Positions 28,999 through 61,959 of a DNA stretch of 64,000 nt are shown one piece after another. The stretch is from positions 46,624,001 through 46,688,000 of the forward strand of contig CM060732.1 of assembly GCA_030704615.1 (NCBI GenBank). The letters run 5' to 3'. This DNA comes from Takakia lepidozioides (Eukaryota; Plantae; Bryophyta). The translations under genes were made by a program, and so were the position numbers. The stretch's first letter is position 1; each line of letters starts with the position of its first letter. The notes under the pieces are model-generated. The model was not told the DNA's origin and searched no databases. It saw nothing but the letters and a program-made list of their open reading frames with translations.

Positions 28999-29014
28999 TT
29001 ACCCCTTCCCCCTC
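28999..29014 (-). promoter_or_regulatory. G2 polypurine tract
   Basis: Minus-strand GAGGGGGAAGGGGTAA immediately before the 3' LTR. Confidence 0.9.
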
Positions 29015-29035
29015 AAAAAGCCGTGTCCTCACGGT

Positions 29036-33575: not shown

Positions 33576-33599
33576 TGTTTTGCCCACCCCGGTCATATA

Positions 33600-36547: not shown

Positions 36548-36570
36548 AGTGGCTGGTTCTTCTAGGATTT

Positions 36571-39500
36571 CTATTTCTCCTCCTTTTCTTCATAGAAATG
36601 TGGTGGGTAACAGTTGGTTTCCTCTTCAATTGGTGTTGCTGTCACTACACCACAGCAGATACCTCTCAAACAACTTAGGCTTTCCAGCCGCATCTCTGCA
36701 ACCTGCTCCCATTCTGGGTGTGCAGCAAATAGGGTAGCTTCCTGCTCCTCATCCAGTCCTCCCTTCCAGTCATACTCTCTGACTCCTCGAGGTCTTCTTG
36801 TAGCAGGTAATCTACTAGATTTCTTTGTGGTAATTTGTATCTCGTGCATCCCATTATGCACAGTTAGTAACTGAGAATTCCAGTCATGGAATACCCTGGC
36901 CTGTTTCAGCCACGGACGTCCCAATAATAAGGAGTAAGCCTCCATGACTTCATCCATTTTTAATACAGTTACTGTGATCATAAAGATCATTTTCTGTATC
37001 TGTATCTTAACTCCTCTTATTAATCCCAATGGCTGTACACTTCTTTGATCTGCCATTGTTACTGTAAATGGGGCTGGTTTCATGTTACTTAGACCAAGCT
37101 TCTTCCTTAATTGGTCTGTCATGATATTTACTCCAGAACCACCATCTATCAGTACATCAGTTAGTTCTGTGCTTCCAATTCTCAATTGGATTACTGGCAT
37201 AGAATCATCAAAGTCCATGACTGGTTCTCGCCCTTCCGGCTTCACATTATAACTGGTCACCTTGCTGTTCAGGTCTGTGTTTCCTGTCTCTTGGGCAATT
37301 CGATTGATTGCCTGATACAGCCTGTGCCTACAATAAGGTGCCACAGCTAATAGCTGTCCAATGGTAATTTCTGCTTTGGTCTGACATATTACTTCAGCCA
37401 AAGTCTCTTCATTACTTTGCATGTCTGCATCTTCTTTTTTCCTTTCTTCCTCACTCCCCTCTTTTTCTCCATCCGAATCAGAGGAATCTGCCACAGGAAT
37501 ATCCGTACTCTTTTGCATTTCCCTTATAGTATCTGCCACTTCCTTGTGCAGTTCCTTCTCATCCTTCCAAGTCTCTTCATCTTCAGGCATATCATTGCCA
37601 CTTCCAGTCTCATCTTCTTCCTCTTCTACTGGAGGTATTAGTTTGGCTTTACTTCTTGTTACTATCATTGTACTTACTTCTGGTACAACACATGGCCTAA
37701 CCATGTGAGCTGCCACCACTGGGCCCTCATTCACAGGAGCTCTCATCTCATTCTGGTGTCTTATCCAGAATGAACAGGCTGCCTTGCGATGTCCTGGCTG
37801 ATTACAATAGTAACATAGCTCTTCACCATTGGGTCCTCGCCCTTGGTCTGGTCTTGGATTATTTCTATAATCCTGATTCCCGGGCTGGTAATTCCCCCTT
37901 GGATTACCCTGATAGTTGCCTCTGGAATTTCCTTGGTAATTCCCTCTTGAATTACCTCTCCCTTCCATGCCATTGTTATAACCACCAGACCTACCATAGT
38001 GGTCCTGATCATTGCTTCTTCTTGGCTGGGGCTGCACCTGATGCACCCTCACTTGCCTAGGTTCTCTTGCAGCTGTCCTTCTGTTGTAGTAACAATTCTC
38101 AGTAGAATGGTTATCCATTTTACAGATAGTACAGTGTTTCTCCTTCATGTGGCATTCTGTAGTGGTATGGCCTTCATTCTGGCACTTTGCACACCATACA
38201 CCCTTCCTCCAATGTGTTGCAGCCTCTGTGGCATACTTCTTCAAGATTTCTTCCAATCTTTTCTCATAGTTATCCCTCTTCAACTTTTCCTTTCTCTTAC
38301 TCTTTCTTTTTAGTTCTTGCTCTTCTTCTTCATCTGACTCATCTTCAGAGTCCTCATCTTCCTTTTTCTCTCTCCTGAGCATTCCCAATTGCTCAATTCT
38401 GTTTGCAGTTTCAAATGCCTCCTCCACTGTATTATGGGGTAACATATCCACTTTCTTCTGCAACTCTGGTCTTAGTCCACTCACAAACCAAGTCTTCTGT
38501 AAACCGGGTGCTGGTACTGCAGCCAGCTTTTTCATCATCAATTCCATCTTCTCCATATACTCTTCAACAGTTTCATGCTTCTTCTGCTTCAGCTGTTGTA
38601 AACTTCCATACACTTCATCCTCAGTTTTACTTGTCCTGAACCTATTTCGAAATGCTGTATTCAAGCCATTCCAGGTTAGGAAATGATTATCAGGGAATCT
38701 TGCATACCATTCACTTGCTTTCTTGATAAGTGAACAAGGAAACAGTCTCATCTTGGCATCATCGCCATTCTCATTGTTCACTATACACATGTGCTCAAAT
38801 TGGCTAATGTGTACATCGGGATCCCCTTTTCCTGAATATATTGGAAAGGGTGGTTTTGCCCGTGTTGGTTGTAACGCCATCTGTGGCCCTACCTTCTGCC
38901 CACTGACAGGTGCTGGCACCCTTGCTGGTGCTGGTCCTTCTGGACCTGTTGTTTTTGTGGTGGATCTTCCACCAAGTGGTGGCCCTTGAGCACTCCCTGC
39001 TTCTGGCCCCACGATATTCACAGTATTCCCAGCTTCAGTTGCACTACTTCCCACACTCCCTGTCCCCCCAGAGCCAGATCCAGGCAGCCCGCCTGATCCC
39101 CCTGAGCCGACACCTTCGTTGGCCTGTGATCCAAGTGCTCCACTTGATCCAGGTCCAACGGGTTGGGATGTCCTGGTTGTAGTCTCAACCTCAGCTGTTG
39201 GGTCTACTTCTTCATATTCTTCCTCTTCCAATTTCTTCTCTCTGTTTTCATCCTCCAAGTTCTGCCCTTGGGTTTCTTCTTCACTCATGTAACTCAACTG
39301 TAATGGTGTTGGAGAGTCTGAACTCTCCGTTGGCTCTGCCACATCCTCATCTCCTTCTTCATCTTCTGCTTCAGAAACTGGAGTTCCTGCTTTTGGTGTT
39401 CCATGCCAACTCTTATCAAAGATTTCTGTCAAGTCTTTTATCCAAGGATGTACCTCAGATCTTTCACCTCGTGATTGATCTTCTTCCTGTACCAATTCCC

Positions 39501-39711
39501 TTAATCTTTCTTGCAAAGAAACAGAAGGAGTGGCATCCAACTCTAGTTCTTCCGGTATAGGTGATGCACTTTTTGATCTTGATGGTGTGAGAGGTCCAGA
39601 TGATTCCCCTATGTCTATTCCTCTCTCCCAAAGATATGGATAATTAGCTTTCAGATAGCTTTCTCTTTTTGATGAATATCTTTGTCGTCTAGCTTCTCTT
39701 TCATCACTCAT
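36571..39711 (-). CDS. G2 Gag-protease, 1046 aa
   Basis: YSGKGDPDVHISQFE, three CCHC knuckles, VLIDGGSGVNIM, LLLGRPWL. Confidence 0.95.
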   Translation of the reverse strand: MSDEREARRQRYSSKRESYLKANYPYLWERGIDIGESSGPLTPSRSKSASPIPEELELDATPSVSLQERLRELVQEEDQSRGERSEVHPWIKDLTEIFDKSWHGTPKAGTPVSEAEDEEGDEDVAEPTESSDSPTPLQLSYMSEEETQGQNLEDENREKKLEEEEYEEVDPTAEVETTTRTSQPVGPGSSGALGSQANEGVGSGGSGGLPGSGSGGTGSVGSSATEAGNTVNIVGPEAGSAQGPPLGGRSTTKTTGPEGPAPARVPAPVSGQKVGPQMALQPTRAKPPFPIYSGKGDPDVHISQFEHMCIVNNENGDDAKMRLFPCSLIKKASEWYARFPDNHFLTWNGLNTAFRNRFRTSKTEDEVYGSLQQLKQKKHETVEEYMEKMELMMKKLAAVPAPGLQKTWFVSGLRPELQKKVDMLPHNTVEEAFETANRIEQLGMLRREKKEDEDSEDESDEEEEQELKRKSKRKEKLKRDNYEKRLEEILKKYATEAATHWRKGVWCAKCQNEGHTTTECHMKEKHCTICKMDNHSTENCYYNRRTAAREPRQVRVHQVQPQPRRSNDQDHYGRSGGYNNGMEGRGNSRGNYQGNSRGNYQGNPRGNYQPGNQDYRNNPRPDQGRGPNGEELCYYCNQPGHRKAACSFWIRHQNEMRAPVNEGPVVAAHMVRPCVVPEVSTMIVTRSKAKLIPPVEEEEDETGSGNDMPEDEETWKDEKELHKEVADTIREMQKSTDIPVADSSDSDGEKEGSEEERKKEDADMQSNEETLAEVICQTKAEITIGQLLAVAPYCRHRLYQAINRIAQETGNTDLNSKVTSYNVKPEGREPVMDFDDSMPVIQLRIGSTELTDVLIDGGSGVNIMTDQLRKKLGLSNMKPAPFTVTMADQRSVQPLGLIRGVKIQIQKMIFMITVTVLKMDEVMEAYSLLLGRPWLKQARVFHDWNSQLLTVHNGMHEIQITTKKSSRLPATRRPRGVREYDWKGGLDEEQEATLFAAHPEWEQVAEMRLESLSCLRGICCGVVTATPIEEETNCYPPHFYEEKEEK

Positions 39712-39732
39712 GTCCCATGTCTTTCATTTCTT

Positions 39733-40428
39733 TTAATGTGGCAATAACCAAAACTCTCTTCTGTAATATCTCTCGTATATGCCTGGATTTCTTTCAAGCT
39801 TCAATGCACCCTTGGCTATACTTGAAGTCTCCGTTACCATATAACCATATGGCAAACAAGTCTGAAAAGCTGTTCTTGGTGTGAGTTTGATCCACAAAAT
39901 ATCCTTTGGAATCCAATTCTTTACCAGTACAAGCTCTTCATGCATATGAGTATAAACATTCACCTTTCTTTCTTCCCAGCCTTCAAACTCTACTCGTTTA
40001 ATGGATAGCAACGCTATCACATAAACTAATGTTGGTAACCAACGTGCTCTTCCTCTACAGGCTACCTGATAAATCTTTATCACTCCTTTCTCCAGACCCC
40101 ATTCTGGATCAGCATCATGCACTCGTTTAAGAATATTTTCTTTACATCCGTCTGGCAATTCCAAGAACCTTTGAAAGAATTGTTTGGACAATCTTTCTTC
40201 CTTCGTTCCACAGGGAATTTGATTCACTTCAAACTCTTTAATGGTCCAACCACCATGATCCCACCAGATGCCTGTCACATCTGGTTGTTCATGTCCCAGG
40301 TCCCCAGTATGGTCGCCAAATGTCGCGCGGCTTTTACTCACCCATCCCTTCGCTATCCGAGGCGGAAACTCCAAGATAGAAGAGTTGGAAATCTCTAAGT
40401 ACTCAGCCCGCGCAGAACAATCAGTCAT
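39733..40428 (-). CDS. G2 extra 5' ORF (ORF0), 231 aa, unknown function
   Basis: Open frame stopping about 20 nt before the gag ATG; homologous to G1 ORF0. The only upstream in-frame ATG lies inside the LTR. Confidence 0.7.
   Translation of the reverse strand: MTDCSARAEYLEISNSSILEFPPRIAKGWVSKSRATFGDHTGDLGHEQPDVTGIWWDHGGWTIKEFEVNQIPCGTKEERLSKQFFQRFLELPDGCKENILKRVHDADPEWGLEKGVIKIYQVACRGRARWLPTLVYVIALLSIKRVEFEGWEERKVNVYTHMHEELVLVKNWIPKDILWIKLTPRTAFQTCLPYGYMVTETSSIAKGALKLERNPGIYERYYRREFWLLPH
40301..40318 (-). promoter_or_regulatory. G2 primer-binding site (probably tRNA-Arg type)
   Basis: TGGCGACCATACTGGGGA, 2 nt from the LTR. Confidence 0.9.
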
Positions 40429-41373
40429 GACCTACAGCTAGTGTATCATGGGGGTGTTTCCTATTTGTTTCCTTTTCCGCATTCATCTTAGCTACCTTAC
40501 CATTGATAATTAAGTATCAGTTTGCTTCATCAATTTATCGGTTTCCTTAACTCCTCCATTCAATCCACAGCTTCACTCAGATCTCTCTACACAGTGTGAT
40601 TGTATCGTATAAGTATCAGATTATGATTTATCAGGTATCAGGCCGAAGCCATTATGTCTCTAATCTGCTCTACAATATCACTCTCGCTTTGCATATGACA
40701 AGCATCTACTAATCCTCTTTTCTCCTTCATCGTGCTCTCCGATCTCCGCTCCCGCCTGTCTCCGAAGTCCTCCCCGAATAATGATCCCTTCCTATTCCCC
40801 GTTCTTCCCTTTATCCTCCTATCCGCGGTTCTAACCGTTTCCCTCTCTAACCGTCGTATGTGAACTAACATGTTCCCTTCACTGGTGTTGTTCCCCACAG
40901 TCGTTCCCTGTCCTACTCTTCGTTCCCTATTATCGTGACAGCTGTGTCAAGCGGTGACTGGCTGTGTTTGGCTGTGTCGGGCTGTGACGACTGTGACGGC
41001 TGTGTGGGCTGTGTGGGCTGTGACGACTGTGACGGGCTGTGTGGGCTGTGTGGGCTGTGACGACTGTGACGGCTGTGTGGGCTGTGTGGGCTGTGACGAC
41101 TGTGACGGCTGTGTGGGCTGTGACGACTGTGACGGGCTGTGTTGGCTGTGTGGGCTGTGACGGCTGTGTGGGCTGTGTGGGCTGTGACGACTGTGACGGG
41201 CTGTGTTGGCTGTGTGGGCTGTGACTGCTGTGTCGGCTGTGTGGGCTATGTAACCCCCTTCTACAGTGCGCTGCTGTCACCCCTAAGGTTCCTGTTTGTC
41301 TCAGTCTGTGCAAAATTTAAGGGTACCCTACAGATCCCGTATAAGTGTCTAAGTCCCCTACAGTCCTCTAACA
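40321..41373 (-). repeat. G2 5' LTR (1053 bp)
   Basis: Direct repeat of 27907-28998. Confidence 0.97.
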
Positions 41374-41473
41374 GGGTGGGGCACCACTACCACTGATGAG
41401 GGGTGCCACTACCACTACCACTGTGGGTGGGGCACCACTACCACTAGTGCCAGGCAATACTACCACTACCACT

Positions 41474-42580
41474 ATGTGCGGGGCAGGACTACCACTAGTG
41501 CAAGTGGAGTCAGTTGCGGCAGTGACTCGAGGAGCAGCACGAGTTCCTGAGCCACGGGGTGCGGAGGTGGAGTTGGATCCACAGCGTGGGGAGGCAAGCC
41601 ATCAGGCCAGGCTTTCTCAGTCATTCACATTGGCGGAGACAGTGTCGACGCCGTCCATGGCACCTAGTTCCCACCCGACTGTTACCAAGGCGGAGGTTAC
41701 TATGCCATTGGGGAGAGCTACACGGGCAACACCACTACCTAGTGTTGCCAAGGCTACGACAGCTAGTGTGCTGCTGGGGGCAGCCACAGCTGTGTGCCAG
41801 GCTCCATTGTTCTCGGCTACCATGATTGCGACGCCGGAGGTAAGACCAGCTGAGGTGTTCAGGCTGGCAGCGACACTCTGTGAGAGTGGGGAGGTTATCT
41901 CATCTTCTGCGGAGATAGTATGAGGTGCAGTGCCGGAGGGATCCTCGGATGTGAGGGTCAAGATTGCCACGGCGGCGTCATGGCAAGCTGCAGCTGCCAG
42001 GTTGATAGAGTTGTCAGCTAGGCCAGCCATTGAGCGCGCCATGGTGACACCTGGAGTTGTCATGTTAGACAACCAGGATGGCATTTTCTGTTTGAGTGGA
42101 CCGGCAGGCAAGAGGTACCGGCCACTACGGGTCTTGTTGGACTCGGGAGCTCAGCCATTGATGCTGAGCAGAGCTGCTATTGCACGCTTGGGCCTCACGG
42201 AGGCGGATATGGAGCCGTGCCCTTTCCAGATACAAACATCTCTGGGAGGATCAGAGCAGGCTCGGGGCATGACACGGCATGAGTTGGCTATCAGACTACA
42301 GTCGGATCATCCTACAGATGGCTCAGTGATGAGAGCCAAGGCCATTGTGACAGACGCGGTCTCCTACGATGTCCTTATTGGTGGGGCAGTGTTGCACCCC
42401 ATGGGCTTCACCTTGGATTTTTGGGAGGAGTCAGCTTCTTATAGGCCTGGATGGCAGTCAGGGGAGGGCCGGCGTGTGCAGCTCCATGTGACGTTCAAAG
42501 GAGGAGTTGCGGTTGCCCAACGAGGCAAGATGCCAACTCTGGCAGCATTCACAGCTGCAGTGACTTGGCTTGAAGAGTTG
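41474..42580 (+). pseudogene. M1 gag-pol linker and aspartic protease
   Basis: LRVLLDSGAQPLML and YDVLIGG; one stop at 41921. Colinear with M2 ORF 57360-59810. Confidence 0.9.
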
Positions 42581-43560
42581 CCTGGTCTACCTTGGTCAGC
42601 TTGGTTAGAGCCTTTGCAATAGCACTAAATCCCTTGACAAACTGTCTATAGTAGTTTGCCAACCCCATGAAAGCTCGAACTCAGCTCACATCCGTGGGAC
42701 GTGGAATCTGTGCGATGGCCTCTACCTTAGTCTGCTGCACCCCCAATCCTCCAGGATATATCATGTGGCCCAGATACTCAATCTGGTTGTGGAAGAACTT
42801 GCACTTCCCCGGATGTAATTTCAATCCGTGCGCTCTCAAGCGCTCAAACACCACCTGAAGGTGTCTCTCGTGCTCCTCCACCGTAGCACTAAAGATGATG
42901 ATGTCATCTATGTAGCACTGAGCAAAGTCTACCCCTGCTAAAATCCTGTCCATGACTCTCTGGAACTCTGCAGGAGCGTTCTTAAGCCCGAATGGTAAGA
43001 ATCGCCACTGATATAGGCAATCCTTCCCGTGCTCATTGATCCCCCAGAATGTCGTCTTCTACTTGTCCGCCTCCTTGATCAGCAACTGGTGATATCCGGA
43101 CCGCAAGTCCAAAGTGCTAAAGACCTTGGCATGCCCAATGGCATCAAAGATCTCCTCCGGTGTGGGCATGGCATACTTATCGGACTTGGTCTGACGATTT
43201 ACAGGCCGGTAATCACCGCACATACGTCTCTCCGTCCAATTGCCATAGACATCCTTCTTGGCTGGCATCACCGTGGCTGAAGCATACTCTCCACCAGAGA
43301 GCTCCACCAAACCAGCCTCCCAGAGATCTTGAGTCCTCATCTGAATCAAAGTCCTCTCCATGTCACTGTATCTATAGGGTCTCCAAAAGATTGGCGTGTC
43401 TGTGGCCAACTCAATACGAATCTCCTGACCCTTCAGTGCTCCCAAATCCTTCAAACTGAAGGCAAAGCAATTCCTGTAAGCCCTCAGGAACCGCCGTATA
43501 CGTCGACACTCTCCTCCAGTAACAATGGGTCCAATGTCAGGCTCCCAATTGTCCTCCGTA
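42581..43560 (-). pseudogene. M1 reverse transcriptase (inverted)
   Basis: RMCGDYRPVN, STLDLRSGYHQ, LPFGLKNAP, CYIDDIIIFS, YLGH. Confidence 0.93.
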
Positions 43561-43919
43561 ACTGCAACCTTAAGTCCAGCAGACTTAGAGATAGGAGACG
43601 CATCCCGTGGTTGCTATGCCGCAACCTCATGAACAATACTCCCTGCCTGCTCAGTCAATGACAAGGCCTCATCCTGCCCCATCATCTCATCCTTGAGGAC
43701 CTCCTCAACCCGAGAAGAATCCCCAACCTTATCCATCACAGCCGCCTTGGCTGTCAACTCCCTCTGAACCTCAAGCACCTCCCACGTGTGCCATGGATGT
43801 CTACACCCCGTGGTCCTCACCGGCTCGCCCCCACTCACTGCTTGTACCGTCTCGGTAGACAGAGAGACCGTCAAGGGAAGTGCACTCCGCACTCTACGTT
43901 GCTCAGCCATAGCCAAGCT

Positions 43920-44870
43920 GATAATCCAGGTCAAGCAATTTAGATCCATTGCTTGCCCCAACACCTGACGACGTGATGCCTCAGAAAGAGAAGGCACCGC
44001 CGTGGTCCCAGTGGAAAAACCCATAGCCCACTCTCGCTCGTCGGCATTAGGCTCCACTAACTACTGCAACTGAGCATCCCACAGGAGGCCAGGTCCGCTA
44101 TCCCGGAAAGCATGCGATCCTGGGAAGCTGAGCAGTGTAGGTAGTGCTGTTCGTGGTCGACCCACCTTGTTGACCACTGCCAAAGACGAACGGTCATCGT
44201 GTCTCACACGCTGAGACTGCCTCCCTGTGTCCAAAATGCTATCCATTGTGAGGTGTGCTGGCCGCTGCACCCCATCAAATGCACGCTTGAGCAGTGCAGG
44301 TGGCATCAAGTTAGTCCACCATAACCGTGGACGATGAGCCTGTGACCCCACTGCAGCTGCATCCAGCAACACTGCTGACCCAAGCCACAACCGGACTTGA
44401 TGCACACAGGCCATCACCCTGGCCCGAGAATTGCCCATCAGTGGCACATTCTCCAAGATGTATGTTGGAGATACAGCTTGATGAAGCTGTAAGTGGTGCA
44501 AAACCCGCACCATCTCCCAAAACAGACCCGACCTCGAGTCTCGCAATCCATTGTCATGACCGGCTGATGAATGCCCTTGGTAGGGCCAACCTACCACTAC
44601 CAAATCAATGGAGCCAACCCGCTCCAAATCCTGCGCCCCCAGCAATGAAATGTCTGCTGGCAAGGCCTGCTGATATCCACGAACTGCAGACACCGGCAAC
44701 AACTCAGGGTAGTGCTGCACCAACTGAGCAACATGGCGTAGGGAGACGCGTCGTGCAGTCTCATTCCTCTCCACATACAGGTAACGCCGTACCCGTACAC
44801 CTGCCTGTAGAACAGCAGCCAATCCGGTGTTGATCCCGCCAAACAAGTCCAGAAGGCAAATGCCTTCATC
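43920..44870 (-). pseudogene. M1 DNMT3-like C5 cytosine methyltransferase domain (catalytic Cys to Tyr, one stop)
   Basis: DLFGGI, YVER, GWPYQG, ENV, AHRPRLWWTNL, EREWAMGF, RRQVLGQAMD. Confidence 0.9.
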
Positions 44871-45114
44871 CGGACACTACCACATGATCGGTGTGGTGTC
44901 CAATGGTGACAACTGAGGTGGACCTGGTGCAATCCCCACACTGTCCTCCTCTCTTGACGGTACAAAAGCCTCTACCCAGGCTTGTTGCACACGACAATCA
45001 GCAACCCGCTGCAAATCCTTGCTCGAGCCCCACAATGGAGTGTGAGCAACCATGGCAGGCAATTCCGCCATACCATACATGTCATCTTGCTCTCCCGGAG
45101 GTGACACATCCTCT

Positions 45115-47217
45115 GAGTGGCAATGGGAAGATGAGCAAGAGCGAGCTTTTCAGGAGCTCAAGGCGAGGCTGACCACGGCGCCGATCTTGAGACGACCTAT
45201 CAGGGGGCGTCCCTTTCAGGTGCATACAGATTGGAGCATGCTGGGGCTTGGAGCGGTGCTCACACATGTGGATGATGAGGGAAGAGAGTTCGTAGTGGCT
45301 TATGCTAGCCGCTCGAACAACGCTGCAGAGGCTAAGTACAGCTCATATGAGGGAGAATGCTTAGCTGCAGTGTGGGCCGTGGCACACTTCAGGTGCTATC
45401 TATATGGCAATCTTTTCACCCTTGTCACGGATCACCAGCCACTCAAGTGGTTGATGGAGTCAGACAAGCTTACGGGGAAGCTTGCACGGTGGGCACTCAT
45501 ACTCCAGGAGTATGACTTTTAGGTTGTGCATCGACCCGGTTTGGTCAATCGGGATGCGGATGGATTGAGTCGCAATCCATGTATGAGCCAGCAGGATGAC
45601 ACAGGAGCTCGGTGGCATGGTGAGACGGACGAGGAGATGGTGTCGGGATGGCACGCATTTGCATTTTTGTGTATCTTGGCATCGGGAGGTCAGGTTGGAC
45701 CTACAACAGGGATGACTGTAGATGGAGTGTTTGAGGACCCTGAGGCTAGTGATGAGCCAGGTGGTGCCATAGATATACATGAGGATTCGGCTGTGTTGGA
45801 CTACCTCCGCACGGGAGACACGACAGCCACTCTGACTGCCAGGGAGAGGGATCGGATCCTGCAACGAGCCAAGAGGTTCAAGTGGGAGGGGATACACCTA
45901 CTTCGAGTGTGGGAGGATGGTCGGGTGAGGATTGTGCCTCACCCCACACAGCATGCACGGTTAGTGCGGCATGCCCATGAGGAGTTGGGGCATTTTGGAG
46001 TGCGACGCACTCACAGTTTACTGCAGGGGCAGTATTGGTGGCGTGGTATGCATACAGAGGTGCAACAGTTCGTGGCTAGGTGCATGGTGTGTGACAGGGT
46101 GCGTGCTTCATTCAACGCCCCTACACCACAGTTGCATCCTTTACCAATCATGGGATTGGGCTACAGGTGGAGTCTTGACTTCGCAGGACCGTTGCCACTG
46201 ACTATGCGCCACCACAGATATGTGTTGGTGATGGTGGAGCACTTCTCCAAGTGGATTGAGTTGGTTCCATTGCCTGACAAGGCTAGTGAGGGGGCTACGT
46301 ATGCATTCTTGGATCGTGTGCTTAGCCGATTTGGTGCTCCAGCTGAGGTACTCACGGACCAAGGGAGAGAGTTCTTGGGGGAGTTTAAGGCTTTGTGTGA
46401 TAAAGCCTTGATAGACCACTGTACCACTTCTCGGGATCATCCTGAGGCCGATGGCTTGGCAGAGAGAGTGGTGCAGACGGTAAAGAGGGGTTTGCGCAAG
46501 TATGGCTTGCAAAAGGGACACCTAGGAGATTGGGATCTTCATGTACCTTGGTTAGCCATGGGCTACAGGTTCAGCAAGCAAGCATCACTTGCCTCCTTCT
46601 CACCATATTTCCTTCTCTTTGGCCGAGAGCCGGATTTGCTTGCATCTATTCACAGGGAGGCTGCAGTAGTCCTCAACCTTGATGATCCGGATGTGTGGAC
46701 ACAAGCATGTGCCCAACGGGCAGAGTTGTTCAAGAGAGTCATGCCTATGGCTTTTGAGAATCTTGCTATTGCCCAACACCGAGACACATTGAGGTATGCC
46801 ACTATACATGGAGGGGGATATCGGCCATGTGTTTGGCGTTTCCACCCTGGGGACTACGTGTATCTGTAGCAGACAGCGCCTACGACCTTGGATGTCACAA
46901 CAGGACGTGTGATTCTAAGGGTCAGGGAGGTGTTACTTTCAAGAGTGTTGATTCTGGAGGGTCGAGATGGCATGGTATGGAAGGATCATGTGCGCAATTG
47001 TGCGCCATGTCACATTCCACATGTGGATGGGAGGATAGATCCCAACCTTGCAGTGGTATATGCAGGATTGCGTTGCATGCTATGTGGGCATGCTTGTGGT
47101 GCCGCCACTATGCTGGTGTGTGATCGATGCTCAAGAGGTTGGCACATGGGATGCTTGACACCACCTCTTGAGAGGGTTCCTGATGGAGATTGGTTATATC
47201 CACCCTGCTTGGGATAG
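45115..47217 (+). pseudogene. M1 RNase H, integrase and C-terminal PHD finger
   Basis: HTDWSMLGLGAVL, YEGECLA, TDHQPL, DADGLSR; HEELGH..CMVC; SLDFAGP, LTDQGREF, DGLAER; CMLC..CDRC..WH..C..W.YPPC. Two in-frame TAG stops. Confidence 0.93.
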
Positions 47218-47465
47218 TGGCAGTGGATATGACTAGTGGCAGCTCACAAGACATGGGAGGCCAAGCTCATAGAAGTCAATACCCAAGATCTCAGGCCTAA
47301 GTTCACAGGTTGCAAGATGACGACTAACGATGGGGCAACTCTTGTACCCGGCCTCTTGATCTATTGAGTTTGAGTGTAGTAGGGACAGTGGTGGAGGACC
47401 TAGTGAGGCTATGGTCACTTTCACATCTTGTGGCTATCTGGACTTAGAGGGACCTAAGCGCCAGC

Positions 47466-47477
47466 TAGGGGGGCGAT
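47466..47477 (+). promoter_or_regulatory. M1 polypurine tract
   Basis: TAGGGGGGCGAT directly before the TG of repeat A1; identical in M2 (53860-53871, minus). Confidence 0.85.
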
Positions 47478-47718
47478 TGTGATGGACTAGTGGCTGCACT
47501 AGTGGTGGCTAGTAGCAGCCTAGTGGTGGACTAGTGGCTGCACTAGTGGTGGCTAGTGGCAGCCTAGTGGTTGGACTAGTGGCTGCACTAGTGGTGGCTA
47601 GTGACAGCCTAGTGATGGACTAGTGGCTGCACTAGTGATAGACTAGTGTTTGGTGTGCATATATGTTGTGTGGTTTGGACAACGATGTAGTTATGTAGCG
47701 ATATGTATGCGCACGACA
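47478..47718 (+). repeat. M1 terminal repeat A1 (U3-like, 11-bp CTAGTGG array)
   Basis: TGTGATGG...GCACGACA; repeated at 48037-48309 and, inverted, at 53673-53859. Confidence 0.9.
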
Positions 47719-47720
47719 GC

Positions 47721-48035
47721 TGTCAAGTTATTTTACCACTAGTGTGAAATTAGCTAGAAAATAACTTTATTTTATACTGACATTTGGGATTGACCCAAGT
47801 GTCAATCTAGGGGCCAATACATGTTTGGGCACCTGACGTTGTTATCTTCACTTCAGATCGCGGTGGACTCATCTTTCTCGAGTTGAGCCTCACTGCGTCT
47901 AGCTATAGCGCCGTAGTGTGGATTCCCCATGGCGTGGGGTGCACTTGGCTCGACTTAATATATGAGTGATGTTTTCATGTGCGGGTGTGTGAGTTTGAGA
48001 GAGCTTGTATGCTTGTATCATTCCTTTCCTTATCA
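47721..48035 (+). repeat. M1 terminal repeat B2
   Basis: TGTCAAG...CCTTATCA; direct repeat of 23835-24143. Confidence 0.9.
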
Positions 48036-48036
48036 T

Positions 48037-48309
48037 TGTGAATGGACTAGTGGCAGCCTAGTGATGGACTGGTGGCTGCACTAATGGTGGCTAGTGGCAG
48101 CCTAGTGGTGGACTCGTGGCTGCACTAGTGGTGGCTAGTGATAGCCTAGTGGTTGACTAGTGGCTGCACTAGTGGTGACTAGTGGTTGTCTAGTGGCAGC
48201 CTAGTGGTGCACTAGTGGTGCACTAGTGATAGACTAGTGTTTGGTGTGCACATATGTTGTGTGGTTTGGACAGCGATGTAGTTGTGTAGCGATATGTATG
48301 CGCACGACA
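48037..48309 (+). repeat. M1 terminal repeat A2
   Basis: TGTGAATGG...GCACGACA followed by the TSD TATT. Confidence 0.9.
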
Positions 48310-53267: not shown

Positions 53268-53859
53268 TGTGAAAGGAGAAAACCTAAGCAAACTTACACA
53301 CTAGTGTGAGTTGCAAGACATATAGTAAGTGAGTTGATTTTTCAACCAATCTCTAGATAAGCATGAATCTGAGCACTTTACCTAATATGTCTGCTTCTTG
53401 TATGTGATAGGCCGATTTTGCCCTCAACAATATGTATTGGTATTTTGTAGGGTTCCAATCTTAGGTTGATCTTTAATTGTGATCAGTATGTAAGAAGGAC
53501 ATTTCCTCTTACACAAGGCTTTTTTTTATGTGCAACTTGAAGCACTTCAACCGGGCGTCTATAAGAGTGTGAAGGAATATGACAACCGCTATTGCATGGG
53601 TGTAGGATTTGTTCGACCTTCTCTCTCACCCTCCATTTTTCTTGGTGGATTGTTCTTTTAACATATCTCAGCTGTCGTGCGCATACATATCGCTGCACAA
53701 CTACATCGCTGTCCAAAACCACACAACACATGTGCACACCACACACTAGTATCCACTAGTCCACCACTAGTCCAGCCACTAGTCCAACCACTAGGCTACA
53801 ACTAGTCAGTCACTAGGCTGCCACTATGCTGCCCACTATGGCAGTCACTAGTCCACACA
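53268..53859 (-). repeat. M2 3' terminal repeat: module A (53673-53859) plus unrelated module B' (53268-53670)
   Basis: Minus strand reads PPT-TGTGTGG...GCACGACA-GC-TGAGATATG...CCTTTCACA, then host fragment. Confidence 0.7.
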
Positions 53860-54119
53860 ATCGCCCCCCTAGCTGGTGCTTAGGTCCCTCTAAATCCAGG
53901 TAGCCACAAGATGTGATAGTGACCATAGCCTCACTAAGTCCTCCACCACTATCCCTACTACACTCAAACTCGATAGATCAAGAGGCCGGGTGCAAGAGTT
54001 GCCCCATCGTTAGTCGCCGTCTTGCAACCTGTGAACTTGAGCTTGGGATCTCATGTATTGACTCCTATGAGCTTGGCCTCCCATGTCTTATTAGCTGCCT
54101 CCAGTCATGTCCACTGCCA

Positions 54120-56340
54120 CTATCCCAAGCAGTGTGGACACAACCAATCTCCATCAGGAACCTTCTCAAGAGGTGATGTCAAGCATCCCATATGCCAACC
54201 CCTTGAGCATTGATCACACACCACCATGGTGGCTGCCCCTTTGGCAGACCCACAGAGCATGCACCTCAAACCTGCAGGTACCACTGCCAAGTTTGGGTCA
54301 ACTCTGCCATCGACATTGGGAAGGTGACATGGCGCACAATTACGCACATGGTCCTTCCAAGTCATGCCATCCCGACCCTCTAAGATCAGGACCCCTGAGG
54401 GCAACACCTCTCGAACCCTTAGAATAACACGCCCTGCAGTAACATCCAGAGTCGTAGGAGCAGTCTGCTGCAAATAAACATAGTCACCAGGGCTAAACCT
54501 CCAAACCCCAGGACGATATCCTCCACCACATATAGTGGCATACCTCAGCGTATCACGGTGCTGTGCAATGGCAAGTTTCTCAAAAGCCATGGGCATGATT
54601 TTCTTGAACAACTCTGCACGCTGATCACATGCACGTACCCACATGTCCGGATCGTCAAGGTTAAGGACTTGAGCAGTGTCCCTACGAATGGCTGCAGGCA
54701 AATCCGGCTCTCGGCCAAAGAGAGGAAATATGGTGAGAAGGATGCAAATGATGCTTGTTTGCCGAACCTGTAGCCCATGGCTAACCAAGGAACCTGAAGA
54801 TCCCAATCTCCTAGGTGTCTCTTCTGCAAGCCATACTTGCGCAAACCCCTCTTCACCGTCTGAACACTCTCTCTGCTAAGCCATCGGCCTCAGGATGATC
54901 CCGAGAAGTGGTGCGGTGGTCTATCAAGGCTTTATCACACAAAGCCTGAAACTCCCCCAAGAACTCTCTCCCTTGGTCCGTGAGTACCTCAGCTGGAGCA
55001 CCCAAACGGCTAAGCACACGATCCAAGAATGCATACGCAGCCCCCTCACTAGCCTTGTCAGGCAATGGAACCAACTCAATCCACTTGGAGAAGTGCTCCA
55101 CCATCACCAACACATATCTGTGGTGGCGCACAGTCAGTGGCAACGGTCCTGCGAAGTCAAGACTCCACCTGTAGCCCAATCCCATGATTGGTAAAGGATG
55201 CAACTGTGGTGTAGGGCGTTGAATGAAGCACGCACCCTGTCACACACCATGCACCTAGCCACGAACTGTTGCACCTATGTATGCATACCACGCCACCAAT
55301 ACTGCCCTTGCAGTAAACTGTGAGTGCGTCGCACTCCAAAATGCCCCAACTCCTCATGGGCATGCCGCACTAACCGTGCACGATGTGTGGGATGAGGCAC
55401 AATCCTCACCCGACCATCCTCCCACACTCGAAGTAGGTGTATCCCCTCCCACTTGAACCTCTTGGCTCGTTGCAGGATCCGATCCCTCTCCCTGGCAGTC
55501 AGAGTGGCTGCCGTGTCTCCCGTGCGGAGGTAGTCCAACACAGCCGAATCCTCATGTATATCTATGGCACCACCTGGCTCATCACTAGCCTCAGGGTCCT
55601 CAGACACTCCATCTACAATCATCCCTGTTGTAGGTCCAACCTGACTCCCGATGCCAAGATACACAAAATGCAGATGCGTGCCATCCCGACACCATCTCCT
55701 CGTCCGTCTCACCATGCCACCGAGCTCCTGTGTCATCCTGCTGGCTCATGCATGGATTGCGACTCAATCCATCCGCATCCCGATTGACCAAACCTGGTCG
55801 ATGCACAACTTGAAAGTCATACTCCTGGAGTATGAGTGCCCACCGTGCAAGCTTTCCCGTAAGCTTGTCTGACTCCATCAACCACTTGAGTGGCTGGTGA
55901 TCCGTGACAAGGGTGAAAAGATTTCCGTATAGATAGCACCTGAAGTGTGCCACGGCCCACACTGCAGCTAAGCATTCTCCCTCATATGAGCTGTACTTAG
56001 CCTCTGCAGCATTGTTCGAGCGGCTAGCATAAGCCACTACGAACTCTCTTCCTCATCATCCACCATGTGTGAGCACCGCTCCAAGCCCCAGCATGCTCCA
56101 ATCCGTATGCAGCTGAAAGGGACGCCCCCTGATAGGTCGTCTCAGGATAGGCGCCGAGGTCAATCTCGCCTTGAGCTCTTGAAAAGCTCGTTCCTGCTCA
56201 TCTTCCCACTGCCACTCCTGGTCCACCTTGGTCAGCTTGGTTAGAGCATTTGCAATGGTACTAAATCCCTTGACAAACCGTCTATAATAGTTTGCCAACC
56301 CCATGAAAGCTCAAACTCAGCTTACATCCGTGGGGCGTGG
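54120..56340 (-). pseudogene. M2 RNase H, integrase and intact PHD finger (several 1-nt frameshifts)
   Basis: CMLCGSAKGAATMVVCDQCSRGWHMGCLTSPLEKVPDGDWLCPHC is a complete C4HC3; DDE motifs intact. Confidence 0.93.
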
Positions 56341-57200
56341 AATTTGTGCAATGGCCTCTACCTTAGTCTGCTGTACCCCCAATCCTCTAGGATATATCAT
56401 GTGACCCAAATACTCAATCTGGTTGTGGAAAAACTTGCACTCCCCAGATGCAACTTCAATCCGTGCGCTCTCAAGCGCTCCAATACTACCTGAAGGTGTC
56501 TCTCATGCTCCTCCATCGTAACACTAAAGATGATGATGTCATCTATGTAGCACCGAGCAAAGTCCACCCCTACTAGAATCCTATCCATGACTCTCTGAAA
56601 CTCTGCAGGAGGAGCATTTTTAAGCCCAAATGGTAAGAACCGCCACTGATATAGGCAATCCTTGCCGTGCTCATTGATCCCCCAGAATGTCGTCTTCTGC
56701 TTGTCCGCCTCCTTGATTGGCAACTGGTGATATCCGGATCGTAAATCCAAAGTGCTAAAGGCCTTAGCATGCCCGATGGCATCAAAGATCTCATCTGGTG
56801 TTGGCATGGCATACTTATCGGACTTGGTCTGACGATTTACAGACCGGTAATCACCGCACATACGTCTCTCCATCCAATTGCCATAGACATCCTTCTTGGC
56901 TGGCATCACTGTGGCTGAAGCATACTCTCCACCAAACCTGCCTCCCAGAGATCTTGAGTCCTCATATGAATCAAAGACCTCTCCATGTCACTGTATCTAT
57001 AGGGTCTCCGAAAGATTGGCGTGTCAGTGGCCAACTCAATACGGATCTCTTGACCCTTCAGTGCTCCCAAGTCCTTCAAACTGAAGGCAAAGCAATTCCT
57101 GTAAGCCCTCAGGAACCGCCGTATACGTCGTCTCTCTCCTCTGGTGACAATGGGTCCAATGTCAGGCTCCCAATTGTCCTCCGTAACTGCAACCTTAAGT
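56340..57200 (-). pseudogene. M2 reverse transcriptase
   Basis: RMCGDYRSVN, DLRSGYHQ, LPFGLKNAP, CYIDDII. Confidence 0.93.
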
Positions 57201-57359
57201 CCAGTGGGCTTAGAGGTAGAGGACGCTCCAGTGGTTGCTATGTTGCAACCTCATGAGCAGTACTCCCTGCCTGCTCAGTCAATGACAATGCCTCATCCTG
57301 CCCTATCATCTCATCCTTGAGGACCTCCTCAACCCGAGAAGAATCCCCAACCTCATCCA

Positions 57360-59810
57360 TCACAGCCGCCTTGGCTGCCAACTCCCTCTGAACCTCAAGC
57401 ACCTCCCACGTGTGCCATGGATGCATGCACCCGTGGTCCTCACATGCTCGCCCCCACTCACTACCTGTACCGTCTCGGTAGGCAGAGAGACCATTGAGGG
57501 AAGTGTACTCCGCACTCTGCGTTGCTCAGCCAGAGCCAAGCTGATAATCCAGGTCAAGCAATTGAGATCCATTGCTTGCCCCAACACTTGACGACGTGAT
57601 GCCTCAGAAAGAGACGACACCGCCGTGGTACCAGTGGTAAAACCCATTGCCCGCTCACGCTCGTCAGCATTAGGCTCCACTAACTGCTGCAACTGAGCAT
57701 CCCACAGGAGGCCAGGTCCACTATCCCGGAAAGCATGCGATCCTGGGAAGCTGAGCAGTGTAGGTAATGCTGCTCGTGGTTGACCCACCTTGTTGACCAC
57801 TGCCAAAGGCGAACGGTCATCGTGTCTCACACGCTGAGATTGCCTCCTTGTGTCCAGAATGTTATCCACTGTGAGATGTGCTGGCCGCTGCACCCCATCA
57901 AATGCACGCTTGAGCAGTGCGGGTGGCATCAAGTTAGTCCACCATAGCCGTGGACGATGAGCCCGTGACCCCACTGTAGCTGCATCTAGCAACACTGCTG
58001 ACCCAAGCCACGGCCGGACTTGATGCACACTGGCCATCACCCTGGCCCGAGAATCGCCCATCAGTGGCACATTCTCCAAGATGTATGCTGGAGATACAGC
58101 TTGATGAAGCTGCAAGTGGCGCAAAACCCGCACCATCTCCCAAAACAGACCCGACCTCGAGTCTCGCAATCCATTGCCATGCCCGGCTGATGAATGCCCT
58201 TGGCAGGGCCAACCTGCCACTACCAGATCAATGGAGCCAACCCGCTCCAAATCCTGCGCCCCCAGCAACGAAATGTCTGCTGGCAAGGCCTGCTGATATC
58301 CACGAATTGCAGACACCGACAACAACTCAGGGTACCGCTGCACCAACTGAGCAACATGGCGAAGTGAAACGCGTCGTGCAGTCTCATCCCTCTCCACATA
58401 CAGGTAACGCCAAACTCGTACACCTGCCTGTAACACAGCAGCCAATCCGGTGCTGATCCCGCCAAACAAGTCTAGAAGACAAATGCCTTCATCCAGATAC
58501 TGCCACACAATAGGTGTGGTGTCCAATGGAGACAATTGAGGTGGTCCTGGTGCAATCCCCGCACTCTCCTCCTCTCTTGACGGTACAAAAGCCTCCACCC
58601 AGGCTTGTTGCACCCGTCGATTAGCATCCCGCTGCAAATCCTTGCTCGTGCCCCACAATGGAGTCTGAGCAACCATGGTAGGCAACTCCGCCATACCATA
58701 CATGTCATCCTGCTCTCCCGGAGGTGGTACATCCTCTGAATGAGCATTGCCCTCAAGCAACTCTCTAGGCCAACTCACTGCCGCTGTGAATGCTGCTAGT
58801 GTCGGCATCTTGCCTCGCTGGGCAACCGCAACTCCTCCTATGAACGTCACAGGGAGTAGTCTGATAGCCAACTCACGCCGTGTCATGCCCCGAGCTTGCT
58901 CCGATCCTCCCAGAGACGTCTGTATCTGGAAAGGACAAGGCTCCATATCCGCCTCCGTGAGGCCCAAGCCTGCAATAGCAGCTCTGCCCAGCATCAGTGG
59001 CTGAGCTCCCGAGTCCAACAAGACCCGCAGTGGCCGGTACCTCTTGCTTGCCGGTCCACTCAAACAGAAAATGCCATCCTGGTTGTCTAACATGACAACT
59101 CTAGGTGTCACCATGGCGCGCTCAATGGCTGGCCTAGCTCGAAGCTCCATCAACCTGGCAGCTGTAGCTTGCCATGGCGCCGCCGTGGCAGTCTTGACCC
59201 TCAAATCCGAGGATCCCTTCGGCACTGCATCTCCCAGTATCTCCGCAGAAGATGAAGTAACCTCCCCACTCTCACAGAGTGTAGCTGCCAGCCTGAACAC
59301 CTCAGCTGGTGTTACCCCCGGCATCGCAATCATGGTAGCCGAGAACAATGGAGCCTGGCACACAGATGTGGCCGCTCCTAGCAGCACACTAGATGCCGTA
59401 GCCTTGGCGACACTAGGTAGTGGTGCTACCCGTGTAGCTCTCCCCAATGGCATAGTAACCTCCGCCTCGGTAACAGTCGGGCGAGAACTAGGTGCCATGG
59501 ATGGCGTCGACACTGTCTCCGCCAATGTGAATGACTGAGGAAGCCTAGCCTGACGGCTTGCCTCCCCACGCTGTGGATCCAACGCCACCTCTGCACCTCG
59601 TGGCTCAGGAACTCGTGCTGCTCCTCGAGTCACGGCTGCAGCAGACTCCACCTGCACTAGTGGTAGTGCTGCTCCACACATGAATCCCATGCCTCCCATA
59701 TCTCCTCCCTCAGGAGCAGGAGGTGGACCATCCGGCCTTAGAGCCGGTACCACCTGAGCTGTAGCCATGGCAGCAAGCCTTTGCTCTAGCTGCTGAAGCC
59801 GGTTGGCCAT
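57360..59810 (-). CDS. M2 protease fused in frame to a DNMT3-like C5 cytosine methyltransferase (MTase at about 57541-58490)
   Basis: LLDSGA, then motifs I DLFGGISTG, II YVERD, IV AGWPCQG, VI ILENV, VIII AHRPRLWWTNL, IX ERERAMGF, X RRQVLGQAMD, with no stop. Confidence 0.93.
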   Translation of the reverse strand: MANRLQQLEQRLAAMATAQVVPALRPDGPPPAPEGGDMGGMGFMCGAALPLVQVESAAAVTRGAARVPEPRGAEVALDPQRGEASRQARLPQSFTLAETVSTPSMAPSSRPTVTEAEVTMPLGRATRVAPLPSVAKATASSVLLGAATSVCQAPLFSATMIAMPGVTPAEVFRLAATLCESGEVTSSSAEILGDAVPKGSSDLRVKTATAAPWQATAARLMELRARPAIERAMVTPRVVMLDNQDGIFCLSGPASKRYRPLRVLLDSGAQPLMLGRAAIAGLGLTEADMEPCPFQIQTSLGGSEQARGMTRRELAIRLLPVTFIGGVAVAQRGKMPTLAAFTAAVSWPRELLEGNAHSEDVPPPGEQDDMYGMAELPTMVAQTPLWGTSKDLQRDANRRVQQAWVEAFVPSREEESAGIAPGPPQLSPLDTTPIVWQYLDEGICLLDLFGGISTGLAAVLQAGVRVWRYLYVERDETARRVSLRHVAQLVQRYPELLSVSAIRGYQQALPADISLLGAQDLERVGSIDLVVAGWPCQGHSSAGHGNGLRDSRSGLFWEMVRVLRHLQLHQAVSPAYILENVPLMGDSRARVMASVHQVRPWLGSAVLLDAATVGSRAHRPRLWWTNLMPPALLKRAFDGVQRPAHLTVDNILDTRRQSQRVRHDDRSPLAVVNKVGQPRAALPTLLSFPGSHAFRDSGPGLLWDAQLQQLVEPNADERERAMGFTTGTTAVSSLSEASRRQVLGQAMDLNCLTWIISLALAEQRRVRSTLPSMVSLPTETVQVVSGGEHVRTTGACIHGTRGRCLRFRGSWQPRRL

Positions 59811-61213
59811 GCCTTGGTCAACACCTGACCTCCGCGTCCTTGGCCATGTTGAGCTTGCCCTTGGCCTGCACCTCGTGGCTGGCCACCTCGTCCTCTCTGG
59901 GCTGCTCCACCTCGCCCCCGACCACCATTGTTCCGTTGGAACTGGTCTGGGCGCAACTCAGGATGCAAACCATAACACTGGGCCTCTCCATGCCCGTGCT
60001 TGCCACAATGCCCACACTGCAACTGTGCAGGCTGTGCATGTGCTGGCCCTTTGCCTCCCTCTGGGCAATCCTTCTTGACATGGGGTCCTCCACATGTCCA
60101 GCACACCACATCCGCCCGTTGTTGGCCAGCAAATGAAGGGAGAGACCCCTGCATCTGAGGTCCTCTCTGCCATTCCCTGAGCTTCACCTGAGCCCCCTTG
60201 TTGCCTTGAGCACGTTGAGGTAGTGGTTGGCTAGGAGCACCACTACCCCGTGGTGTCTCCTTAGCAAATCCCACCGTGACCACTCGTTCCTCCACCATGT
60301 TGAGCTCTATCCGCTCTGCCAGCAAAAACACATTTGCTAAGGTGGGTTGGGCCGCTTGTAGGAGAGTTGCATCCCGCACCCTTCTCCTCAGCTCCTTGTC
60401 CAATATCCCATACCAGAATTGGACTGCCTGAGCTTCCGTAACCCCTTGGGTTATATTTATCAAGCACCTCATGCGAGTGAAAGCCTCCCTCAAGCTCTCG
60501 GTCGGCTTCCGTTGGAACTCTTGCAAGCTTCGCAACTTCTCTGTCCTCACCCCTTGGTAGTTCCCTCTCAACTCTTCGAGGAACTCCACAACAGGGTTGA
60601 AGGCAGGCACGAGTGTTAGCGTTGGTGCGGTAGTGGCTTGGGTGGACGTCGTAGCTACTGTACCGCTACTTGCTGAAGCTGCCGGTGCAGCGGCAGGTGT
60701 AGCCACTGCCCTCGTGGCTCTAGTGCCCCTAGTGATGGAGACATAGTCGGGTGACCAGTACATCCTCCACTCCTCGATCTCAACCTCATGCCCCCGCCTG
60801 AACTCATGGTAATCATCCATAGGTGGCTCCTCAAGGTGCTGAAACAGCCCCTTCCATGCCATGAAAGGCGTAAATAGTTGTGGATTGCGCATTTGCTGCA
60901 AATCACACCAACTATCAAACTCTTGGATAAAATCATCCAACTCGATGGTGCCCACCGCCCCAGAGTACCTTCGTGGCCCCTTGGTAGCTCCATACATCTC
61001 CTCCATTGTGTCCCACAACAATGGCAAAGAAACAACTTGCACCGCCGGTATGAGTCCTCCTGATTCACAATCCGAATCAGAACCTTCCGTAGAAGACACA
61101 GGAGGTGAAGGTGGCCTAAACCGCACACCTTGTCTCGTGTACCCACTAGTATCGCTAGTGCTCGAACGGGCACTGTCCCCAGCAACTAGTGGCACCTCCG
61201 TGTTGACACTCAA
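59786..61213 (-). CDS. M2 Gag, 475 aa, two CCHC knuckles
   Basis: CWTCGGPHVKKDC, CGHCGKHGHGEAQC, RG-rich tail, QKPTESLREAFTRM-type major homology region. Confidence 0.9.
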   Translation of the reverse strand: MSVNTEVPLVAGDSARSSTSDTSGYTRQGVRFRPPSPPVSSTEGSDSDCESGGLIPAVQVVSLPLLWDTMEEMYGATKGPRRYSGAVGTIELDDFIQEFDSWCDLQQMRNPQLFTPFMAWKGLFQHLEEPPMDDYHEFRRGHEVEIEEWRMYWSPDYVSITRGTRATRAVATPAAAPAASASSGTVATTSTQATTAPTLTLVPAFNPVVEFLEELRGNYQGVRTEKLRSLQEFQRKPTESLREAFTRMRCLINITQGVTEAQAVQFWYGILDKELRRRVRDATLLQAAQPTLANVFLLAERIELNMVEERVVTVGFAKETPRGSGAPSQPLPQRAQGNKGAQVKLREWQRGPQMQGSLPSFAGQQRADVVCWTCGGPHVKKDCPEGGKGPAHAQPAQLQCGHCGKHGHGEAQCYGLHPELRPDQFQRNNGGRGRGGAAQRGRGGQPRGAGQGQAQHGQGRGGQVLTKAWPTGFSS

Positions 61214-61959
61214 CCGGTCATGAACATGTCCCTAACCCCCTCTCCACAAGGTAACCGGGTAGAGAACCTGTTGCGGCTTATGGTTTGGAATACTAAGTTC
61301 CTAACATAGCCTACACATGTACCTGCATCCACCGCAAGCACTCCTATGGTTGGCTAGTCATCACCTCCAACCTCACCACAGGAGAAACAATGATGGTCTG
61401 GCTGGTCATCACCCCAGCCTCACCATCGACAGCATGTTCTAGGACTGGCCGGTGATCAAATCCAGACCAATCACCTATAAAAACAAGCGCCCACACAAAA
61501 CTAGCATGGCGCACAGTCAAGCATGCAGGTATGGAGGGGATCCAAACACAAGAAATCAGAACGACAACTCCCCCACACCAAAAAACAACTCCACGGTGTT
61601 GCTCCTGCAAGGACACCCCAGCCCAAACCCGGACTGACTCTTGCCTCCACCTACGGAAAGGTCTTGGCCTAATGAGAGGGTGGAAATTACGAGGAAGAGA
61701 AGCTAAAGCAATGCCTAACCCCAGCATGCCCCCCTCATCCCAACACTCTTCCTCTCCTCTCTTCCCTCACTTGCATGACCATGGGAATATCATGAAGATA
61801 CTCCTCAAACCGCCCTCCACGAGCTTCAAAATTCGGCCTTCAAGACCACATGACAGTCCTTAGGCAGTCCACCAGTGCCTCCACGAGTCAGCACAGGCCG
61901 TCCACAGGTCAACACGGGCCACCACAGACCAGCATAGGCCCACACAGCTCACTGGTCAT

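Follow-up and report, generated by a model that had tools for sequence, protein, structure and literature searches.

A DNMT3-like cytosine methyltransferase on the Gag side of a conserved stop codon in bryophyte Ty3/gypsy elements

Retrotransposons carrying a C5 cytosine methyltransferase have been described in the charophyte Klebsormidium nitens (the Ty3/gypsy element KnitGypsy-Dnmt3) and in the dinoflagellate Symbiodinium (SymbioDIRS-Dnmt3 and SymbioLINE-Dnmt; PMC5890265), and the role of these enzymes has been open since 2018, the Ty3 example having had no tractable host. We analysed a 64,000-nucleotide stretch of the Takakia lepidozioides genome (GCA_030704615.1, contig CM060732.1, positions 46,624,001 to 46,688,000; hereafter the window), which contains two copies of a related Ty3/gypsy element, the window copy (E3, reverse strand) and its sister M1. 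As in KnitGypsy-Dnmt3, Ty3/gypsy domains are combined with an intronless, unpermuted DNMT3-like domain, DIRS-like repeats and purifying selection, which bears out the kinship with the Klebsormidium retroelement proposed in the initial annotation of this stretch; the K. nitens protein KFL_009030040 (P0353) shares the order of protease (PR), DNMT, reverse transcriptase (RT), RNase H (RH) and integrase (IN), and its DNMT domain is 45% identical. Repeats and domain order are thus shared, and what is new is a conserved stop after the DNMT domain and a wider range among green plants: the accessible text on KnitGypsy-Dnmt3 places the methyltransferase in the Pol open reading frame (ORF), with no mention of readthrough, frameshift or Gag (PMC5890265), and the P0353 gene model is continuous from DNMT to RT, unlike the stop-separated family described here. 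The Symbiodinium elements likewise bear a C5 methyltransferase, the DIRS type with the same A-coding-B-A-B repeats, but they are tyrosine-recombinase or LINE elements of dinoflagellates (PMC5890265, accessible part), whereas the window element combines a DDE integrase with TG...CA ends and duplications of the target.

The domain is a DNMT3-like, unpermuted C5 methyltransferase (not in the DRM order) within a Ty3/gypsy element. A stop-free frame of 865 codons (57360-59957, reverse strand) joins the protease motif to methyltransferase motifs I-X in canonical order with PC and ENV intact (Table 1), just as the initial annotation had read it, and its match to the Pfam family PF00145 scores 47.3 bits (cut-off 22; E 2.5e-12). 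When 44 sequences of solved relatives were ranked, human DNMT3A came first (E 1.7e-11), followed by DNMT3B and then by DRM (E 1e-5 or weaker) and M.HhaI; DNMT3A was also the top Foldseek match (E 2e-15) of an AlphaFold model built from a 17-sequence alignment (pLDDT 68.8, with residues 213-271 in the target-recognition region unreliable). We keep to the label 'DNMT3-like', since the motifs quoted earlier as DNMT3 signatures (AHRxRxxWxNL, ERxxGF, RxxxLG) also occur in the methyltransferase dcm of phage S-CBS2 (AHRKRLYWTNI, RHELLG), which scores above the one insect DNMT3 compared in BLAST (83.6 versus 68.6 bits). In a tree including one animal and no plant host sequence, the retroelement domains and the insect DNMT3 nevertheless stand apart from three phage methyltransferases (support 1.0). 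Identity to the single animal DNMT3 compared is 26%, and the best match in phage records reaches about 27%, i.e., no close phage donor was found there; in IMG/VR, 34 pattern matches gave none that was confirmed. The host enzymes PpDNMT3a/b of non-flowering streptophytes (PMC6453930, accessible part) and human DNMT3A/B share the unpermuted catalytic domain, but the retroelement enzyme differs from them in a longer, poorly modelled target-recognition region and in that a domain search of the ORF found no PWWP, ADD or DUF3444 targeting domain.

The reading-frame layout almost certainly comprises two ORFs: the DNMT domain forms the end of the Gag-PR ORF (ORF1), upstream of an in-frame stop, after which RT, RH, IN and a PHD finger follow. 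This is seen directly at one metagenomic locus (L035), where 1369 open codons (PR, DNMT) are followed by one TAG and, still in frame, by a further 1047 (RT, RH, IN, PHD), and the junction is the same in M1, L003 and L041. The window copy keeps the sequence TAG CAA CCA, though its frame is broken on both sides of the stop. In database proteins the DNMT domain closes a Gag-led ORF of about 1250-1450 amino acids, as in Marchantia P0121, a single protein of Gag, zinc knuckle, PR and DNMT whose Gag end is 58% identical to the window Gag (the Pfam profile Retrotrans_gag matches the latter weakly, E 0.048; Asp_protease_2 matches the protease with E 0.015 in the window copy and 5.7e-5 in M1). Among 44 database proteins of at least 600 amino acids, some of them from one cluster, that carry Gag or PR with DNMT and no RT, the ORF ends 59-170 amino acids past the DNMT domain in 37; the remaining seven are either cut within it (five) or have tails of fewer than 20 amino acids (two). 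The domain had initially been placed between protease and RT of a polyprotein, as part of Pol, and taken for a family trait shared with M1. The order and the family trait hold and one frame does join protease and methyltransferase, but that frame stops before RT and the conserved stop assigns the enzyme to the Gag-PR ORF; M1 likewise carries a PF00145 match, but its domain is dead. With the enzyme upstream of the stop, its expected amount per particle differs from that of an enzyme made as part of Pol.

Conservation of the stop extends to its 3' context. Of 99 confirmed loci from a metagenome scan, 80 were kept, and together with E3 and M1 they yielded 60 sequences matching the RT N-terminus. 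A stop followed by [C/T]A[A/G] stands at the anchored place in 57 of these, 56 times in frame with RT, and is missing in three. Ten of the 57 junctions read strict CARYYA (E3, M1, L003, L023 with TAA, L035, L036, L041, L070, L071 and L078), 44 read CARYYC, all copies of one moss lineage, and three are decayed (TAR for CAR); as background, CARYYA follows 77 of 33,137 stop triplets. The amino acid encoded varies (Pro, Leu or Ser from CAA CCA, CAA CTA, CAG TTA or CAA TCA) and CAR-YYA stays constant. In contigs of the window-element family (two runs of one sample gave 2572 and 2485, two others 41 and 1), no variant of at least 2% is listed at 57231-57242, while 57230, 57243 and 57244 vary, and depth dips there. 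One run, presumed to be RNA, has a contig that crosses the stop without a joint, to which we give no weight. In tobamoviruses, benyviruses and pomoviruses the consensus for type I readthrough is UAG-CAR-YYA; an in-frame stop in this context sets the ratio of the upstream product to the polymerase, and the signal works with UAA as well (PMC3542737, in its accessible text). These patterns suggest that the ORF1 stop is probably read through. In-frame stops are known where gag meets pol, or pol meets env, in MuLV, Tca2 and SIRE1 (PMC2194720, accessible text), whereas here the stop comes after both the protease and an accessory enzyme, which lie on the Gag side. A predicted RNA structure 3' of the stop was not found in the window-element family (z +0.4 and +0.6), and five other loci gave z values of -1.6 to -3.1 against mononucleotide shuffles.

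Some points tell against readthrough. The junction pattern itself demanded a stop followed by [C/T]A[A/G], and most loci belong to one moss lineage, so that about five independent lineages, not 57, are represented. In that most numerous lineage CAA CCC (42 of the 57) is followed by an in-frame ATG, a context outside the consensus in which reinitiation would be possible, and Tca2 shows that an element with an in-frame stop at gag does not necessarily rely on local readthrough to pass it, according to the accessible part of PMC2194720.

The DNMT domain is under purifying selection. Ratios of nonsynonymous to synonymous substitution (dN/dS, Nei-Gojobori; several deep pairs are saturated) are 0.08-0.19 between lineages, well below 1 and thus not neutral, and within the Ka/Ks <0.2 that is a feature of KnitGypsy-Dnmt3-type elements; particular comparisons gave 0.10-0.12 among L035, L036, L041 and L078, 0.19 for L003-L004, 0.30 for the window pair E3-M1 and 0.45 for L003-L070. 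The RT usually has lower values than the DNMT domain. An intact catalytic Cys is present in 70 of the 71 copies that cover it, the Glu of ENV in 68 of 74, and the residues for binding S-adenosylmethionine and for catalysis (FGG, PC, ENV) are nearly invariant in the family. The domain is probably catalytically active.

If both predictions hold, most ribosomes would halt at UAG and a few percent would read through into RT and integrase, so that readthrough would set the Gag:Pol ratio after the DNMT domain, PR and DNMT being made with every Gag and packaged. Because PR and DNMT lie on the Gag side of the stop, each particle would likely hold many enzyme copies. The protease would free the DNMT inside the particle, the freed enzyme would use S-adenosylmethionine to methylate the double-stranded cDNA, and the new copy, inserted by the DDE integrase with the PHD finger possibly reading chromatin, would land pre-marked. 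Taken whole, this chain of readthrough, packaging at capsid-level amounts and methylation of the element's own cDNA before integration has in our judgement about an even chance of being correct. SymbioDIRS-Dnmt3 domains do perform de novo CG methylation in yeast (PMC5890265, accessible text). The evidence that speaks against the chain is that the closest tested enzyme, KnitGypsy-Dnmt3, gave no methylation there, a result its authors call inconclusive (same source); that a self-methylation footprint in the form of CpG depletion was not seen in the element, whose observed/expected CpG of 0.52 equals the window value, and that a neighbouring Ty3 element without DNMT has a lower one (0.22); and that dN/dS among decayed moss-lineage copies rises to 0.43-0.55.

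Architecture and readthrough could also hold with a different target, the abundant DNMT acting in trans in the nucleus on existing copies, on competitors or on the insertion site as self-limiting copy control. Expression at Gag level would far exceed the enzyme need of one cDNA, and in their accessible text de Mendoza et al. raise slowed retrotransposition as a possibility and report CHH and CHG methylation on K. nitens copies (PMC5890265). Synthesis as part of a Gag polyprotein, however, normally means co-assembly into the particle, the targeting domains looked for are absent from ORF1, and the family is very abundant in its host (92,039 contigs in one sequencing run); we consider trans action unlikely.

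A second alternative leaves the DNMT on ORF1 and derives Pol not by readthrough but by splicing, with the TAG as 3' acceptor, by reinitiation or from an internal promoter. Splicing between PR and RT occurs in Ogre/Tat elements. In the moss lineage a T-run stands ahead of TAG and an ATG follows two codons later, and Tca2 has a promoter at the junction (PMC2194720, accessible part). The T-run is, however, absent in M1, L003, L035 and L041, and an AUG ahead of the conserved RT N-terminal FAF motif is missing in five of the eight junctions examined (M1, L003, L035, L070, L078). Of 36 de-duplicated moss copies, 15 have TAA instead of TAG, compared with 14.6% G>A in other TAG columns, as fits a tolerated exchange of stops and not an obligatory AG, yet the TAA copies lie scattered over the tree, which is poorly resolved, and do not support inheritance of TAA as a moss subfamily. 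Readthrough remains the preferred reading, and these other routes to Pol appear distinctly unlikely.

That the domain was kept as a non-catalytic module, binding nucleic acid or serving the structure of the particle, is improbable in our view: the K. nitens domain showed no activity in yeast (PMC5890265, accessible text) and EC replaces PC in 59 of 134 relatives with the RH-DNMT-IN order, but those EC relatives retain the Cys, and FGG, PC and ENV are nearly invariant in the present family. A recently captured fragment of host DNMT3 carried as a neutral passenger, to which the decay of both window copies might point, is very improbable and largely refuted by the dN/dS values and the tree, the domain being held across liverworts, mosses, charophytes and chlorophytes, intronless and without the DUF3444 of plant host DNMT3.

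The range of the family is wide. A protein search with the DNMT domain returned 185 near-length and 74 longer proteins, and a profile search gave 443 clusters at 50% identity (E up to 1e-30); named relatives, the closest 70-76% identical, are in Marchantia polymorpha, M. paleacea, Calypogeia, Riccia and Sphagnum, so that the system does extend to land plants, as had been proposed. Those of M. polymorpha are annotated 'hypothetical' (Mp4g09160, Mp8g17980, Mp6g11220). An RT-RH search adds Klebsormidium, Closterium, Haematococcus and Volvox, and a Coleochaete transcriptome contains a Pol-only protein. In the ESM Atlas, the DNMT domain and the RT of a neighbouring Ty3 element were both assigned mostly to Streptophyta. 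The literature searched, which did not extend to subscription papers or to the supplementary figures of PMC5890265 and PMC12344493 that may bear on range, holds no description of such elements in land plants or of readthrough in them. PMC12344493, in its accessible text, mentions that LTR and DIRS elements from 'streptophytes and dinoflagellates' carry DNMT3 but names no land plants, the supplementary text of both papers has no match to KnitGypsy or Marchantia, and the accessible parts of PMC11982613, PMC9406493 and PMC8557442 contain nothing on DNMT-carrying Ty3 elements.

Two domain orders occur, PR-DNMT-RT (fused or stop-separated) and RT-RH-DNMT-IN-PHD, the second including Volvox (partial domain) and Haematococcus (weak partial match). 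FastTree phylogenies were built from the 115 of 160 RT-RH and 75 of 189 DNMT sequences that were left once near-duplicates had been removed, the window copy being in the DNMT tree only, where it clusters with L003 and with sequences of Calypogeia, Marchantia and Sphagnum (support 1.0). In the RT tree the Coleochaete sequence is sister to a clade that includes the bryophyte RTs (0.955), and the RT-RH-DNMT-IN-PHD order forms a nearly exclusive clade (0.947), with a few Pol-only or partial members. A Chromochloris DNMT groups with this order. In neither tree does P0353 come out as sister to the bryophyte clade. The trees are compatible with long descent and one relocation of the DNMT domain, and the occurrence in both green algae and bryophytes speaks for an old green-plant lineage and not a one-off capture. 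For KnitGypsy-Dnmt3 an acquisition in the K. nitens lineage has been proposed (PMC5890265, accessible text), whereas the relatives found here span bryophytes, Coleochaete, Closterium and chlorophytes. A large sister lineage (P0161-P0186, P0386-P0519) has the DNMT domain between RNase H and integrase, with motif IV reading EC in 59 and PC in 30 of its 134 representative matches. Three giant retroelement polyproteins from ENA (P0249, P0251 and P0253; 2311-4799 amino acids) combine RT, a PHD finger, a PCIF1-type adenine methyltransferase, a DNMT3-like domain and RNase H in a single chain, with an OTU-like protease in P0251, i.e., an element with both adenine and cytosine methyltransferase domains. 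A 52% identical homolog under the name of a bacterial metagenome-assembled genome (P0021) is probably eukaryotic contamination of the bin.

The element has the Gag-PR-RT-RH-IN order, DDE integrase, TG...CA ends and target duplication of Ty3/gypsy, and in place of two ordinary long terminal repeats (LTRs) it has split direct repeats, laid out A-coding-B-A-B in M1, L028 and L077. TG...CA ends with 4-bp target duplications were present in all three elements with both ends examined (TATT/TATT in M1, AATC/AATC in L077 and, with one mismatch, AACA/AATA in L028). A DIRS or tyrosine-recombinase element was rejected on the rve integrase, these duplications and the report of no recombinase family in either L035 ORF. 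No A repeat was found upstream of the window copy within the window. Inspection of M1, L028 and L077, without a search against a tRNA set, found no TGG-type primer site after A, whereas a control Ty3 has one; the window contains no detected tRNA gene. The internal B-A junction reads CACGACA-GC-TGTCA in M1, L005, L010 and L041, from which L028, L032, L035, L049 and L077 differ by one or two changes, and a cut after CA on both strands of this palindrome would leave recessed CA-3' ends with the 2-nt overhangs used by DDE integrases. A fuller scenario, which we put forward tentatively and think doubtful in its entirety, is that an old green-plant Ty3 lineage having split repeats but lacking a tRNA primer site shifted the point of recoding past a captured DNMT3 on the land-plant branch, that a leaky amber codon of the tobacco mosaic virus type loads DNMT at Gag level, and that the pre-methylated cDNA is cut by the DDE integrase at the CA-GC-TG junction.

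Table 1. Positions of the element's features within the window
Feature	Position	Strand	Remarks
Window copy: 5' leader	61007..61882	-	common to M1 (25656-26399)
Gag	59789..61006	-	start codon 61006; frame broken near 59820
Two CCHC zinc knuckles in Gag ORF	60103-60065, 60016-59975	-	
Aspartic protease	58860..59100	-	VLLDSGA at 59024-59004
DNMT3-like C5 cytosine methyltransferase domain	57516..58490	-	motifs I-X unpermuted, PC and ENV intact
Motif I LDLFGG	58475	-	
Motif II YVERD	58400	-	
Motif IV DLVVAGWPCQ	58229	-	
Motif VI YILENV	58085	-	
Motif VIII AHRPRLWWTNL	57962	-	
Motif IX ERERAMGF	57662	-	
Motif X RRQVLGQAMD	57596	-	
ORF1 C-terminal tail, ~90 codons	57241..57515	-	broken near 57430; continuous in M1
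Conserved ORF1 stop	57232..57240	-	readthrough-type context TAG CAA CCA
RT and RNase H	55640..57231	-	Pfam RVT_1, RT_RNaseH; several frames, decayed
Integrase (H2C2 zinc finger, rve core) and C-terminal PHD finger	54129..55562	-	several frames, decayed
AGGGGGG, polypurine-tract-like	53864..53870	-	immediately upstream of repeat B; also precedes B in M1 and L028
Repeat B and B-A junction CACGACA-GC-TG	53669..53860	-	copy ends 2 nt into second A
M1, whole outline	23835..48309	+	TG...CA ends; 4-bp duplication TATT
M1 A repeat	23835-24143	+	
M1 leader, Gag, protease half	25656-27881 and 41474-42584	+	nested element between; 85-93% identical to window copy
M1 stop TAG CAA CCA	43608..43616	-	in frame with DNMT upstream and RT downstream
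M1 DNMT domain, inactivated	43920..44876	-	PF00145 match; WPCQ reads WPYQ; two internal stops
M1 repeats after coding region	B 47479-47718, A 47721-48035, B to 48309	+	

The relatives in Marchantia make activity, readthrough and cDNA methylation testable in a genetic model with methylation mutants, where a stop after the DNMT domain predicts a capsid-level dose of a silencing enzyme, a sharper claim than 'DNMT in Pol'. Counts of DNMT genes in bryophyte genomes may include transposon copies.

Other features of the window concern M1 and its surroundings. An inversion in M1 (42581-45119) spans DNMT and RT; a few bases overlap at each of its two joints, and it is either a rearrangement or an assembly artefact. 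The element nested in M1 is a young Ty3/gypsy (27907-41373, reverse strand) with largely identical LTRs and an extra 1450-codon ORF (29036-33388) without Pfam match; a 9-10-nt tandem repeat upstream of the window element (61923-63065) is about 70% like one in its LTRs (28519-28876, 40935-41250). On the forward strand, an ORF of 532 codons that has Cys/His motifs but matches no Pfam family (9305-10903) and an ORF with a SWIM zinc finger (17705-18340) are presumably pieces of Mutator-type transposons, and an ORF with a zinc knuckle (21132-22552), beside a gap of 500 N (22553-23052), resembles what we take to be a LINE ORF1.

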